Assembly (NCBI GenBank): GCA_049903315.1
Contig: JBNGBT010000004.1
Span: forward strand, 32,001 to 96,000
Length of the DNA stretch: 64,000 nt
Source of the DNA: Candidatus Cloacimonadota bacterium
GTDB taxonomy: Bacteria; Cloacimonadota; Cloacimonadia; JGIOTU-2
Reading direction: 5' to 3'
The notes beneath the pieces are model-generated. The model was not told the DNA's origin. It worked only from the letters and a program-made list of their open reading frames with translations, and ran no database searches. Positions 26,650 to 32,109 of this stretch are shown here, one piece after another. The translations under genes were made by a program, and so were the position numbers. Position 1 is the stretch's first letter, and every line of letters starts with the position of its first letter.

Positions 26650-27742
26650 CAATAGAGTTCCAGTTAAGAAAATTTATTCTTTGATCAACACCGTATTTCT
26701 AAAATTAGGTGTTCCTATAGATGATGCACATATTTGCACTGAAGTCCTAATTGCATCAGATCTTAGCGGTATTGAGTCTCATGGTATCGGTCGCCTCAAA
26801 ATGTATTATGATCGTATCATAGCAGGTATTCAAAATCCAATAACCAAAATTGATGTAATAAAGGACAGGGCTGCAATTGCTGTATGGGATGGCAATCATG
26901 GTATGGGACAAGTGATCAGTCATCAGGCAATGCTAGCTGCCATTGATAAAGCTAAAGAATATGGCGTTGGTATCATAACCGTGAGGAATTCTACACATTA
27001 TGGCATAGCTGGGTATTATGCAAAATTAGCATCAGATAATGACATGATTGGCATTACAATGACGAATGCGCGCCCATCAGTTGCACCATTATTTGGAGTG
27101 TCACCAATACTGGGAACAAATCCGATTGCTTTTTCTACACCAACTAATATGGACTATCCTTTTCTTTATGATGCGGCAACTTCAATAAGTCAGAGGGGAA
27201 AGATTGAGGTGCTTAATCGTGAAGGCAAATCAACACCTGATATTTGGGCTATTGATAATTCAGGTAATCCTTGTGATGATACCGAGGAACTATTGATTGA
27301 ACTGTTACAAAAGAAAGCTTCTCTTGTAGCTTTAGGAGGAAGGGAAGAAATTACCGGTGGTCATAAAGGATATGGATTAGGTGTTATTGTTGAAATTTTA
27401 AGCAGTGCTCTGCAGAACGGCGCATACTTATATCAACTTTCGGGGTTAGAAAAAGATAAACAAGTTCCATATAAATTAGGACATTTCTTCATGGCTATAG
27501 ATATTGATTCCTTTACTGATATAGGATCATTCAAAAAAATAACAAGTGATATTATAAAACAAATTAAAAATTCAAAACGAGAACCCGAAAAGGATAATAT
27601 ATTTATTGCTGGCGAGAAAGAATATTTAAAAGAAAAAGAAGTAAGAAAAATAGGTATACTAATTAATAATGAACTACGAAAGAATCTTGAAGTAATGATT
27701 TATGAATTAGATATTAATTTTACATTTGATGACTATAACTAA
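26642..27742 (+). CDS. Ldh_2 family (malate/L-lactate/sulfolactate/ureidoglycolate) dehydrogenase
   Basis: GIESHGIGRL, RNSTHYG, GTNPIAF and GGHKGYGL motifs. Confidence 0.9.
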   Translation: MHSNRVPVKKIYSLINTVFLKLGVPIDDAHICTEVLIASDLSGIESHGIGRLKMYYDRIIAGIQNPITKIDVIKDRAAIAVWDGNHGMGQVISHQAMLAAIDKAKEYGVGIITVRNSTHYGIAGYYAKLASDNDMIGITMTNARPSVAPLFGVSPILGTNPIAFSTPTNMDYPFLYDAATSISQRGKIEVLNREGKSTPDIWAIDNSGNPCDDTEELLIELLQKKASLVALGGREEITGGHKGYGLGVIVEILSSALQNGAYLYQLSGLEKDKQVPYKLGHFFMAIDIDSFTDIGSFKKITSDIIKQIKNSKREPEKDNIFIAGEKEYLKEKEVRKIGILINNELRKNLEVMIYELDINFTFDDYN

Positions 27743-27785
27743 TCAAGGAATAAGAATCATTATTACTAAATATATAGGCAGAGCG

Positions 27786-29330
27786 ATGAGAAAAAAATTA
27801 GCAATTTTCCTTCTTCTCTTTCTTTTAAGTACTAATTCGATTTATGCAGATTTCACCGTCCCTCTGGATGATGAGGTTTACGATTATCTGCAATCTATGG
27901 AAATCTTGGATAAAATACCATCAAATGCTGTTTATCCGAAATATTATGATCGTATCGAAAATTACCTTTACGATATCGCTGATGAAGATATTCCAAGAAG
28001 CTATAAAGAGCTGAATAGAAAATATTTATCATTCATGAAAATCGATGATGAAGATGGGTTTCATTCAGAAATAATTCCTCTAAAAGAACTTCCTTGGAAA
28101 ATATTAAAGCCAAATAGTATTGATGAATCAAGATCATCATTTTTATCATATAAGAAAGATGATCTCAATCTATTTTCATCATTTATACTTGGCATTGACT
28201 ATGACATAAAAAACGATGACGATCAGCAGCATAGAACTTATCAATATTATGGTCTGGAATTTGGTGGTAACTTTCAAAAAAATCTAGGACTATATACTCG
28301 TTATAGAAAAGGCAATTATACTGGTGATTACGACTTCATTCATGAAGATCCTTATATTCATCATAGCGGAGGAATGGATCGTAAAGTGTCTGTTTATTCC
28401 GAATTTGATTTCAAGAATCCTGTTCTGGATCTTTCTATTGGTTATAGTAACTTCAAAATTGGGAAAAATATTACTTCATCCGTAATTCTAAACGGAATGA
28501 CTAATCCATTTGGGTATTTTAAATATTATAAAAAAATTGGTAAGTTTAATTTTATGGCATTTAATTCACAACTTACTGCAGATAGTGTGACCATCTCATC
28601 AGAATTTCCGGTTAAATCATTTTCTCTGCAAACTCTCTATTATCAAACTGAAAGATTGCAGGTTGGTGTTGGACAGTCAGTTATATATGGTAACAAAACT
28701 ATAGATATTGCCTACTGGACTCCCTTGATGGTATTCAAGCTTATTGATTTTAAAAATCACAATAGAGATAATGAATTTGTATTTGCTTATTCAACATGGA
28801 TTCCTTTTAATGGTATATTGCATTATTTCAATTTATTTATGGATGATTTAAAAAAGAGTCAATTATTTACTAAAGATTGGCTTACAAATTTTGCTTTACA
28901 GACAGGATTCATGTATCAGTCTTCATCATTTCCGTTGAGATTGTCAGCTGAATGCACTGCAGTCGGACCAACTACATATGCTCATCGTGATTATGAACTG
29001 ATTTATTCACAGGATAATATGCTCTTAGGATATTTATATGGATCAAACCTATTCAACCTTTCATTCCAGATAAACTATATGAATCCATATTTCATTGCTG
29101 AGATCCAATACGAGAATATGCAGCAAGGAAGCAATGGAAGCGACCCTTTTAGTTGTGATACTGATCCAGCTGAGTTCCTTTCCGGTGAATTCACTCGTAC
29201 GCAAAGATTAACTGGAAAAATATCTTTTTATTTAAATCAACATCTCAAAGCAAAGGTACAATATTCGATTATTGATAAAGTTAATAAAACCATCAATTAT
29301 CTTTATTCTGGATTGGAGTTTCAATTTTGA
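27786..29330 (+). CDS. Outer-membrane beta-barrel, capsule assembly Wzi-like
   Basis: Signal peptide MRKKLAIFLLLFLLS...IYA; beta-strand-rich body with DN-x-F and LG-x-x-x-GSN motifs; C-terminal LEFQF. Confidence 0.65.
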   Translation: MRKKLAIFLLLFLLSTNSIYADFTVPLDDEVYDYLQSMEILDKIPSNAVYPKYYDRIENYLYDIADEDIPRSYKELNRKYLSFMKIDDEDGFHSEIIPLKELPWKILKPNSIDESRSSFLSYKKDDLNLFSSFILGIDYDIKNDDDQQHRTYQYYGLEFGGNFQKNLGLYTRYRKGNYTGDYDFIHEDPYIHHSGGMDRKVSVYSEFDFKNPVLDLSIGYSNFKIGKNITSSVILNGMTNPFGYFKYYKKIGKFNFMAFNSQLTADSVTISSEFPVKSFSLQTLYYQTERLQVGVGQSVIYGNKTIDIAYWTPLMVFKLIDFKNHNRDNEFVFAYSTWIPFNGILHYFNLFMDDLKKSQLFTKDWLTNFALQTGFMYQSSSFPLRLSAECTAVGPTTYAHRDYELIYSQDNMLLGYLYGSNLFNLSFQINYMNPYFIAEIQYENMQQGSNGSDPFSCDTDPAEFLSGEFTRTQRLTGKISFYLNQHLKAKVQYSIIDKVNKTINYLYSGLEFQF

Positions 29331-29393
29331 GTTTGAGGATTCATATATAGAGTAGAGATTCAGAATGTCCATAACCAACATTCCCCATCCTAA

Positions 29394-29783
29394 ATGACCA
29401 TCAACAATAATGTTTTCCGGATTCTCTTCTGGCTTTCCCTCGCGATTATCACAATTGCATCGATTATTCCTCAATTTTTCCCGCAGCGTGTTAAAATTTC
29501 TCATGATTTTTCGTTTCGGTTAGATTACGTACTTCATTTTCTCAGTTATTTTTTCTTAGCTTCTTTTCTCACATTCTGGAAATTTTCAAAGAATAAAAAG
29601 TATAAGCTTATTTTATTTATCGTAATTTTTGGGATTATCGTAAGTTCAATTTTTGAAACCATCCAATATTTTCTTCCATCCAGAACATTCAATCCTTATG
29701 ACATGCTTTGCAATTTTTCTGGATTCATTATTGGGCTCGTTTCTTCGCTGATTTATCTAAGAATAAATATTCGATCGAAATAA
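29394..29783 (+). CDS. VanZ family membrane protein
   Basis: DYVLHFLSY and ETIQYFLPSRTFNPYDMLCNFSG motifs; four TM segments. Confidence 0.87.
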   Translation: MTINNNVFRILFWLSLAIITIASIIPQFFPQRVKISHDFSFRLDYVLHFLSYFFLASFLTFWKFSKNKKYKLILFIVIFGIIVSSIFETIQYFLPSRTFNPYDMLCNFSGFIIGLVSSLIYLRINIRSK

Positions 29784-29792
29784 ATTAGAAGA

Positions 29793-29885
29793 AATAATCA
29801 ACGATCTGTACGAACAAGCATAACTATAGAAATAAGAAATGAAATTTTGTAATATTCAGTTCAGTATAGTTAGTGTTCTTTGTTA
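29793..29885. repeat. Degenerate copy of the GxxExxY-associated hairpin unit
   Basis: Left arm AATAATCAACGATCTGTACGAACAAGCATAAC and right arm GTTCAGTATAGTTAGTGTTCTTTGTTA resemble the downstream units. Confidence 0.45.
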
Positions 29886-29915
29886 ATAAGCATTATAATT
29901 TAAAAACATTTAAAT

Positions 29916-30299
29916 ATGGATTTGATCTACAAAGAAGAATTTTACAAAATTAAAAAAGCTTGTATAATAGTTCGGAGAAAGCTAGGCAATGGATTTTTGG
30001 AGAAAGTTTATGAAAATGCCCTATCCATTGAATTGAAGAAATTAGGATTTATTATTGAATTACAGAAGGAATTGTTAGTTTACTATGACGATAAAATCAT
30101 TGGGAAATATTATGCAGATATTGTTGTTGATAATAAAATCATTATTGAGCTGAAAACTGTTTCGAGGATCTTACCAATACATAAATCTCAACTTCTTAAC
30201 TATCTTGTTGCAACTGGTTTTGAGTTGGGTGTTTTAATAAATTTTCCAAACGATAGTAATGGTTTTGAAATTGAAAGAATACCAAATTTCAGAAAATAA
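29916..30299 (+). CDS. GxxExxY protein (PD-(D/E)XK nuclease superfamily)
   Basis: LGNGFLEKVYENAL, YADIVVDNKIIIELK, QLLNYL and GVLINF motifs. Confidence 0.93.
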   Translation: MDLIYKEEFYKIKKACIIVRRKLGNGFLEKVYENALSIELKKLGFIIELQKELLVYYDDKIIGKYYADIVVDNKIIIELKTVSRILPIHKSQLLNYLVATGFELGVLINFPNDSNGFEIERIPNFRK

Positions 30300-30552
30300 T
30301 AAGATAGCAACGAACGCTAACGAACAGAGACGAACAAGATTAATTAAAATACTTAAATACATCATTTCCGAATTTATTATTAAAGTATCTTTTGTTAGGT
30401 GTTGTTAGTGTTTGTTAGTTGCAAAATAAGATAGCAACGAACGATAACGAATGGGAACGAACAAACATAAATGTATGTGCTAACAATTAAACAGTGTCAA
30501 AGCCGTTTTCTTAATATTTTTGTTCGTTTTTGTTAGCGTTTGTTAGTTGCTA
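30298..30552. repeat. Two tandem ~127-bp imperfect-hairpin units with 10-bp-periodic arms
   Basis: AATAAGATAGCAACGAACG is identical at 30298 and 30425. CGAA cores at 30311/30321/30331 and 30438/30448/30458; TTGTT(A/C)G at 30392/30402/30412 and 30520/30530/30540. Both units end TTGTTAGTTGC. Confidence 0.88.
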
Positions 30553-30570
30553 ATTATATAAAGGAGACTC

Positions 30571-32109
30571 ATGAAAAATATGTCGATTTCCCCCAATGGA
30601 ACTGAATACCAGCTTCCAACTGAAGAGCAATCAGCTAAGGAGTTAGACGTACTAAAAAAAATCACTGAAGAACAAAGGAAACTCGGACGTAAAATTGTGG
30701 CAGTCCAGGGCATGGGTTTTGTCGGATGTGTCATGGCAGCAGTTGTAGCAGATGCAGTTGACGAGGATGGGAATCCCCTATACTTCGTTCACGGTCAGCA
30801 AAGAGCGTCTGCGCGTTCCTTCTGGAAAGTACCAGTCATCAACACCGGAGTTCCACCGGTAAGTTCATCAGACGCTGAAGTTCCTGAAATTTTCCACAGG
30901 ACTGTTGTTGAAAAGAAAACACTTCGAGCAACTTGGCTGAATTATGCCTATGAAATAGCTGATGTTGTGGTGGTAGATATTCAGCTGGATGCCACCAAAC
31001 CTGCCTTTGGAGATGCATCTCAGGGATATTGCGATATGTCTGCATTCAGGGATGGTATGAAAACACTTGGCAAGTATATTTCACGTGAGTGTCTTATTCT
31101 CGTAGAAACAACTGTACCTCCTGGTACTTGTCAAAATGTGGTGAAACCAGTTATTGAGGAGGAATTCACAAAACGCGGGATTGATATTAAAAAAAGTCCC
31201 CCATTGATCGCACACTCTTATGAACGAGTTATGCCCGGCGCAAAATATGTCAGTTCCATTCGTGATTTCTGGCGTGTGTTTTCCGGAGTGAATGAAAAAA
31301 GTAAAGAGATCGCTCGTGAGTTCTTAAATAATATTCTCGATACCGAGAAATATCCTCTAACAGAATTGGATAATACAAATGCATCAGAACTCTCCAAAGT
31401 TATGGAGAATTCCTATCGCGCAACCAATATTGCACTCACTCTTGAGTGGGCAAAATGTGCAGAAAAGATCGGCGTGGATCTTCATAAAGTACGTGTTGCG
31501 ATTCGTAAACGTAAAGGAACACATGATAATCTGTTGCGACCAAGTCTTGGTGTTGGTGGATATTGTCTCACCAAAGATCCGGTTCTGGCAAACTGGGCAA
31601 TGGACGCGATCTTCCATATTGACGAGAAATTGAAGATAGCCATCAATTCTGTTGACGTGAATGACAAAATGCCGCTCCATACGATCGATCTAATCCAAGA
31701 GGAGTATCCAGAGCTAAAAGATATAAAGATTGTTGTTCTAGGGGTCTCATATCTCGAAGATCTTGGTGATACACGACATTCACCCTCCGAAACCTTGATA
31801 AAATTCTTGAATGAGTATTGGGCAGTTGTCAAAACGCATGATCCTTATGTGGAATATTGGGCAGAAATGGAGAATGTTCCGATAGAAAAATCTCTGGAAG
31901 AAGCATTAAAAGGAATTGATGTCATCATATTTGCAGTTGGGCATACAGAATACCTTGAGCTCATTCCGGATGATGTTGTGAAGATGTCAGAAGGCAAACC
32001 GCTCATCATAGACTGCTCGAATTTTCTCCCGGATGAGAAGATCAAGAAATATCTGAAATTGGGATGTAAGGTAAAAGGCGTTGGGAAAGGGCATATAAAA
32101 GACTTGTAA
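30571..32109 (+). CDS. UDP-sugar 6-dehydrogenase (UDP-glucose/GDP-mannose dehydrogenase family, WbpA-like role)
   Basis: GMGFVG, VETTVPPGT, SYERVMPG, KVMENSYR, GVGGYCLTKDP and DTRHSPS motifs; SD AAGGAG upstream. Confidence 0.9.
   Translation: MKNMSISPNGTEYQLPTEEQSAKELDVLKKITEEQRKLGRKIVAVQGMGFVGCVMAAVVADAVDEDGNPLYFVHGQQRASARSFWKVPVINTGVPPVSSSDAEVPEIFHRTVVEKKTLRATWLNYAYEIADVVVVDIQLDATKPAFGDASQGYCDMSAFRDGMKTLGKYISRECLILVETTVPPGTCQNVVKPVIEEEFTKRGIDIKKSPPLIAHSYERVMPGAKYVSSIRDFWRVFSGVNEKSKEIAREFLNNILDTEKYPLTELDNTNASELSKVMENSYRATNIALTLEWAKCAEKIGVDLHKVRVAIRKRKGTHDNLLRPSLGVGGYCLTKDPVLANWAMDAIFHIDEKLKIAINSVDVNDKMPLHTIDLIQEEYPELKDIKIVVLGVSYLEDLGDTRHSPSETLIKFLNEYWAVVKTHDPYVEYWAEMENVPIEKSLEEALKGIDVIIFAVGHTEYLELIPDDVVKMSEGKPLIIDCSNFLPDEKIKKYLKLGCKVKGVGKGHIKDL

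Follow-up and report, generated by a model that had tools for sequence, protein, structure and literature searches.

A GxxExxY nuclease-fold gene and its phased inverted repeats in a Cloacimonadota genome belong to a widespread cassette system

The window analysed (the whole 64,000-nt stretch taken from contig JBNGBT010000004.1 of a Candidatus Cloacimonadota bacterium) contains a small GxxExxY gene between a VanZ-like gene and a nucleotide-sugar dehydrogenase gene, preceded by one decayed repeat unit and followed directly by two tandem units, each made of two inverted arms around a spacer (Table 1). As a sequence-only reading of this DNA had described, the (A/G)ACGAA motifs of the left arms (starts in Table 1) and the TTGTT(A/C)G motifs of the right arms (starts at 30392, 30402 and 30412, and at 30520, 30530 and 30540) recur at a period of exactly 10 bp, and the two tandem units nearly repeat each other: compared over 40 nt at a spacing of 127, the left flanks agree to 88%, and the right arms, compared over 39 nt at a spacing of 128, to 85%. 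Other details of that reading stood in part: the 19-mer shared by the left arms is present but contains the first motif rather than preceding the motifs; the spacers are AT-rich and dissimilar but, measured from word to word, exceed the size of about 50-55 nt first given; the central G-A mismatch recurs, its exact extent being five of six facing pairs; and the third unit upstream is in phase but weak, its left arm being equalled or beaten by 9 genome positions and its right arm by 162.

Table 1. Features of the GxxExxY locus and its neighbours (window coordinates)
Feature	Position	Strand	Remarks
VanZ-like host gene, upstream context outside the cassette	29394..29783	+	PF04892, NF037970
Unit 0, decayed	29797..29887	+	two-word left arm 29799-29815, spacer 53 nt, weak right arm 29869-29887
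GxxExxY (PDDEXK_3) gene, 127 aa	29916..30299	+	profile matches, PD-(D/E)XK fold model
Unit 1 left flank and arm	30298..30335	+	three AACGAAC-type words: 30309, 30319, 30329
Unit 1 spacer, AT-rich, 58 nt	30336..30393	+	without phage, plasmid or own-genome match
Unit 1 right arm	30394..30422	-	three minus-strand words, centre T in all
Unit 2 left flank and arm	30425..30462	+	words at 30436, 30446, 30456
Unit 2 spacer, 59 nt	30463..30521	+	likeness to spacer 1 not significant, p 0.05-0.18
Unit 2 right arm	30522..30552	-	three minus-strand words; centres T, T, G from outside inward
AAGGAG, Shine-Dalgarno-like, of downstream gene	30561..30566	+	8 nt past last arm
Nucleotide-sugar dehydrogenase, downstream host context	30571..32109	+	TIGR03026; UDPG_MGDP_dh

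The repeats are real. Their pattern occurs four times in the window against a shuffle mean of 0.28, and a scan with an arm profile built from other genomes ranked the four arms as the top four among 5.9 million genome positions. Measured against doublet-block shuffles, the folding of units 1 and 2 has z -2.5 and -3.6, and that of unit 0 only -0.6. The placement of a Shine-Dalgarno sequence just after the last arm is seen again at a junction between two fumarate hydratase subunit genes, which is described below.

The product of the gene matches the family profiles PF13366 (122.6 bits, cut-off 22) and TIGR04256 (125.5 bits, cut-off 35), and its closest named homologs are from Cloacimonadota. Its catalytic set is intact (E29, D68, E78, K80, Q92 and Y96), the same residues are 99-100% conserved, and the median dN/dS of the clade is 0.16 (75 unsaturated pairs). 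An alignment-based structure model (pLDDT 95.3; a single-sequence prediction reached only 33.5) has a PD-(D/E)XK core that is nearest, with middling scores, to Cas4, phage exonucleases, Hjc and restriction enzymes; the top Foldseek match is Cas4 4ic1 (E 3e-5), and BpuSI matches with Z 8.9 and rmsd 2.4 over 94 aligned residues. A sequence search of the PDB found no relative. The modelled core fold, together with D68, E78 and K80, assigns the protein to the PD-(D/E)XK superfamily and predicts metal-dependent nuclease activity. Among 27 matches of 240-290 aa, 22 are fused doubles with two recognisable halves, and all 22 keep the catalytic D-E-K triad in one half only, so that the protein may well act as a dimer of which a single active site works. 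The PF13366 family is large (12,212 clusters at 50% identity match the window protein with E up to 0.001), and the passage of PMC3424549 that deals with PDDEXK_3/GxxExxY (PF13366, TIGR04256) describes unknown function, multiple transfers and mixed clades, and names no repeats, substrate or mobility.

Flanking arms are usual in the family. From 290 loci we obtained 254 genes, 231 without near-duplicates, of which 213 have full flanks; 138 of the 213 lie between an upstream left arm and a downstream right arm. Shuffles give 10.9 of 213, and among 1811 other genes of the genome from which the window comes the count is 32, the two-arm pattern being loose and single-arm controls high. By this pattern, the layout is absent from 75 of the 213 genes. 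Within the window's clade, all 34 genes have at least one arm by a loose pattern counted without a control, in layouts that range from left arm, gene and right arm to long stacks. The arm pattern of this clade is found in 74 of 232 genomes of the phylum: in 26 of the 27 that carry a protein of the clade and in 48 of the 205 others, related genomes not being independent. Because arm, gene and arm is the usual layout, the units in the window are no spacer array: they are gene-less copies of the arms of a cassette, which in its full form has the GxxExxY gene between a left and a right arm, and they are best read as derived and stacked by tandem duplication. The supposition that gene and units form one system is borne out by the enrichment of arms at GxxExxY genes and by the way in which the arm word tracks the protein tree.

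The genome of the window holds further material of this kind. All six of its GxxExxY paralogs have arms by eye, and about 90 intergenic arms elsewhere in the genome belong to the same four word classes as the paralogs; the AACGAAC class is represented outside the locus by one gene-less unit and one lone arm, which is little spread. Five further paralogs, each with phased arms of its own, lie at C44:153650-154054, C33:94855-95244, C55:235026-235451, C22:211144-211524 and C22:285140-285568, and in some of them the reading frame begins within the left arm or shares its first bases with it. At C11:234171-234290, a gene-less unit of the AACGAAC class overlaps an opposite-strand arm of the CACGAAA class. 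No relative of the GxxExxY gene was found in viral contigs, and viral matches of the arm pattern were taken as chance because none of 120 had a facing arm or gene.

Of the 231 genes, 140 yielded a consensus word. On a quick protein tree, in which many forks are open, the words cluster by clade and across phyla, with clades of CACGAAT, CACGGAT/CGCAGAT, CACAGAC, CACAGAG and AACGAAC type; the window's clade (25 tree rows) has a word of its own, and the six paralogs of the genome fall into different clades with four word classes, the word of the window gene being AACGAAC. The 7-base word follows the protein subfamily and not the host, in line with the covariation of arm and protein that had been put forward for testing, and part of this agreement is expected simply from gene and arms being inherited together. 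Among the 140 loci, 84 have a period of 10 and 55 a period of 9, which does not correspond to a strict helical turn and weakens the argument that the motifs lie on one helical face.

Candidate specificity residues in the window protein are R20, P111 and P123, the last adjoining a near-invariant R121. Proline or arginine at position 123 accompanies A as the first base of the word in 30 of 30 rows, and valine, isoleucine or alanine accompanies C in 98 of 98, a total of 128 of 128 from which 12 rows with other residues are excluded, with leucine mixed and the classes picked after viewing the data. The association is not significant, since it reflects only two changes on the tree (2-3 independent origins), and independent-pair tests of residue-base links, with 2-4 pairs each, could not reach significance. 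Between residue 20 and base 7 there is agreement in 115 of 121 rows; the rule fails in L421, a fused protein of Chloroflexota type with Y20 and a word ending in C. A link between residue 90 and base 5 did not hold in an independent-pair test. By eye, the tandem-fused proteins with proline at position 123 (L421, L427) have words that start with A, as does L428 with leucine, and L426 with threonine has no such arms. The fused proteins form a separate clade, and the third origin of the residue-123 link is insecure because their joining the window's clade is not rejected (AU test, p 0.069). The arms of the fused two-domain gene in L421 (1400-1480 and 2290-2375) alternate two words, as a pseudo-dimer with two specificities might need.

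Cassettes come and go at gene junctions. A comparison of the VanZ-dehydrogenase junction among related genomes, which the sequence-only reading had proposed, found the cassette absent before the dehydrogenase in all seven same-genus genomes with flanking sequence; one of the seven has a four-helix-bundle gene instead, and two more appear similar by eye. At the fumarate hydratase junction, for which 30 of 50 matching genomes were examined and 29 were usable, 10 sites are empty (7-19 nt), 10 carry an AACGAAC-type word (five of them with a complete gene and four gene-less, the tenth running off the end of its contig), and two other words occupy 7 and 2 sites; the inserts lie between the stop codon and the ribosome-binding site. 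The state of the junction changes 12 times on the host-gene tree, compared with 14.8 after shuffling, and well-supported sister pairs differ. One insert (L442) is a hollowed cassette, whose spacer retains 25 nt identical to the 3' end of the window gene (E 8e-10). Likeness of 5-10 nt at both ends of the insert in L432 and L453 is A-rich and of low complexity, and no target-site duplication is clear because the junctions are too A-rich.

Lake metagenomes offer related variants, as single contigs at a depth of 2.6-3.6. One contig joins position 30409 to 30538, skipping exactly 128 nt, one unit, in register. A second (run X14) is 99.6% identical over 29704-30158, then diverges, and is about 135 nt shorter before the dehydrogenase; divergence just past the E-L-K codons (30147-30158) in this one contig suggests recombination between GxxExxY alleles inside the gene. 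Compared with window positions 29382-30651, runs X15 and X16 contain another strain, in which a GxxExxY-like fragment precedes vanZ, and vanZ is separated from the dehydrogenase by about 745 nt of different sequence. Elsewhere, L439 has a tandem unit duplication that takes in the last codons of the upstream gene, and L433 and L434, from two genera, have identical junction units and near-identical downstream genes, as a result of either transfer or binning contamination. The polysaccharide setting of the locus is incidental, since the same clade sits at the fumarate hydratase and other junctions. That polysaccharide locus also encodes a 534-aa protein (27726-29330) without a Pfam match, homologs of which lie beside the dehydrogenase in relatives.

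Several known systems invite comparison. IS elements and MITEs consist of a gene bounded by terminal inverted repeats and its internally deleted derivatives, and leave empty and filled sites; the present cassettes likewise have a gene bounded by inverted ends, internally deleted copies, and orthologous sites both empty and filled, but no DDE, HUH, serine or tyrosine transposase, and their ends are phased words with free linkers. Published accounts describe Ssn enzymes as GIY-YIG nucleases with NTS/SRM repeats, SRMs being hairpins of 20-50 nt (Chenal et al. 2025, PMC11893778), and REPINs as intergenic inverted doublets with a spacer, several repeat groups per genome each having its own RAYT enzyme gene (Bertels and Rainey 2011, PMC3116915). 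The cassette resembles Ssn/SRM in that a small single-domain nuclease gene is flanked by its own cognate repeats, variants of the repeat go with variants of the protein, and gene-less copies are dispersed elsewhere in the genome; it differs in the enzyme, which is PD-(D/E)XK and matches only PF13366/TIGR04256 rather than GIY-YIG (cd10448), and in the arms, which consist of two or three 7-base words in phase and enclose either a gene or a free spacer. The analogy with REP/RAYT drawn in the sequence-only reading fits inasmuch as intergenic inverted doublets are able to form hairpins and repeat groups are tied to one enzyme each. Unlike a RAYT, which as described is a tyrosine (HUH) transposase, the linked gene here is PD-(D/E)XK with VanZ and dehydrogenase genes as neighbours; it is also enclosed by a single inverted pair, and the hollowed copies stem from the gene-bearing cassette. 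Because the fold of the enzyme differs, the cassette belongs to neither Ssn/SRM nor REPIN/RAYT. The main text of PMC11893778 does not mention GxxExxY or PDDEXK, and the literature on GxxExxY, TIGR04256, PF13366 and PDDEXK_3, within a search that covered the main texts of mostly open-access papers, yielded no description of these repeats. The locus is a real feature and part of a widespread system for which we found no published description; it is best read as a system of DNA repeats that resembles REP/RAYT or Ssn and relies on a PD-(D/E)XK enzyme, which would cut and mobilise the repeats.

Since the word follows the subfamily and cassettes come and go at junctions, it is likely that the repeats of its own cassette are what the enzyme recognises, and likely too that it contributes to their spread as DNA. 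The explanation that we consider on balance the probable one is that the protein binds its cognate word on both arms and nicks or cuts the DNA there, whereupon host repair would copy the cassette to new junctions, duplicate it, delete it, or hollow it to give gene-less units, and units would stack by recombination between right arms. The layout across phyla, the match of word to subfamily, the turnover, the hollowed copies and the conserved active site are observed; we infer direct binding, action as a dimer, cutting, a role of the enzyme in spreading, and a substrate of DNA, as single-stranded hairpin or as duplex, rather than RNA. The host step must be assumed because PD-(D/E)XK enzymes cut DNA and do not rejoin ends; we know of no joining chemistry in a restriction-fold nuclease.

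A rather unlikely alternative, compatible with this explanation and not exclusive of it, is that the protein acts as an Ssn-like gatekeeper, cutting incoming repeat-bearing single-stranded DNA and so tuning natural transformation, with the repeats spreading otherwise or as a by-product. The repeat-gene-repeat layout and single-domain size are those of SsnA, described in PMC11893778 as a cutter of single-stranded DNA only, and the top fold matches include Cas4 and MGME1, which act on single-stranded DNA. Facing words give a further hint that the arms meet as a hairpin. In short-loop units the difference between facing words depends on register. Of 33 units in the window's clade, 11 have outer words that match across the loop, the expected fraction being 0.56 (p about 0.001); these are 6 of 28 short-loop and 5 of 5 long-loop units (p 0.002, with the cut chosen afterwards); with one unit per genome the median p for the excess of central mismatches is 0.07, and in other word classes the excess is not seen (12/24 vs 41/66, p 0.34). 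If the mismatch is real, either selection acts against short hairpins that pair perfectly, or the two ends have to be unlike. Compensatory covariation, which the sequence-only reading had set as a check, is lacking: the linkers of gene-less units are 0.46 complementary against 0.44 when shuffled, and G-U pairs show no excess over shuffles, so that the word matters more than the stem. The gatekeeper is at odds with this and with the difference in fold, and alone it leaves unexplained why several word classes alternate at one junction.

It is improbable that the element works at the level of RNA, its arms pairing in the operon mRNA to loop out the insert for processing by the nuclease or a host RNase, like an intervening sequence. 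The ORF-bearing intervening sequences of 23S rRNA (PMC4990558) encode a four-helix-bundle family (TIGR02436) and resemble the cassette in enclosing a small gene by inverted arms in a transcribed unit; the cassette differs in lying between protein-coding genes, in its nuclease-fold protein, and in showing no sign of selection for RNA pairing in most word classes. Co-orientation of 127 of 150 genes with both neighbours is predicted by a role in RNA likewise, as is the position of cassettes between stop codon and ribosome-binding site; tRNA splicing endonucleases are among the weaker fold matches, and in the window's clade 17 of 22 units, which are not independent, have the more stable fold on the sense strand. 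Against this, the sense strand is not favoured in other word classes (21 of 56), and the G-U pairs point the same way. The best match of the locus to Rfam has E 3.3, far below gathering, and five related loci have none either. By crude gene calls, gene-less arms are present in 8 of the 151 gaps between divergent genes, in 13 of the 121 between convergent genes and in 32 of the 596 between co-directional genes; with arms as frequent in divergent as in co-directional gaps and linkers without compensatory pairing, the processing site in polycistronic mRNA that had been offered earlier is doubtful at best.

We regard as no less improbable an operator array, in which the protein would mainly be a DNA-binding regulator of its own gene or operon and the repeats its immobile binding sites: phased sequence-specific words with free linkers do resemble cooperative binding sites, but the catalytic residues are invariant, junction states turn over almost randomly on the host tree, and the region has no excess of promoters (6 vs 6.4 expected), a search for terminators having found none. 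Last, a guide array of CRISPR or TIGR type, whose acquired spacers would be expressed as small RNAs directing the nuclease, was suggested by near-identical flanks around dissimilar spacers in two units beside a nuclease and by Cas4 as top Foldseek match, but is largely refuted and very improbable: rather than having near-constant length and foreign matches, the AT-rich spacers of 37 unit clusters vary in length between 2 and 134 nt, those of the window match nothing in phages or plasmids (best listed E 0.8) or, beyond chance, in their own genome, some tandem spacers are diverged copies of each other, the L442 spacer is a remnant of the gene itself, and at most loci the gene lies between arms and there is no array.

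Returning to a cassette spread as DNA, its most far-reaching form, which we put forward tentatively and hold to be possible, short of probable, is that the very large GxxExxY family consists of sequence-specific nucleases, 127 residues long, that act as dimers with one active site, read their 7-base word by a simple residue code (base 1 by position 123, base 7 by positions 20 and 111) and mobilise their own arm-bounded cassette without known transposase chemistry. They would then form a third system of small nucleases and repeats, next to RAYT/REP and Ssn/SRM. From the flanking word a substrate can be predicted for each GxxExxY protein, and paralogs with differing words serve as specificity controls, so that the function of the family becomes testable with oligonucleotides. 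If the enzyme mobilises the cassette, this would explain a common class of intergenic repeats and add a route of mobility without a known transposase; if the residue code is true, it would describe a very small nuclease with readable specificity.

Other small gene-plus-repeat elements share these junctions. Four-helix-bundle genes with short-period repeats occupy the same junctions in relatives; in two same-genus genomes (L096, L097) such genes (TIGR02436) lie downstream of vanZ together with small genes that have a weak GIY-YIG-type match, making this region a hotspot of very small cassettes in which a gene is joined with repeats. In L447 and L455, the AACGAAC-type arms at the fumarate hydratase junction enclose a different, GC-richer palindromic element without an Rfam match, which may be a nested repeat of another small-nuclease system.
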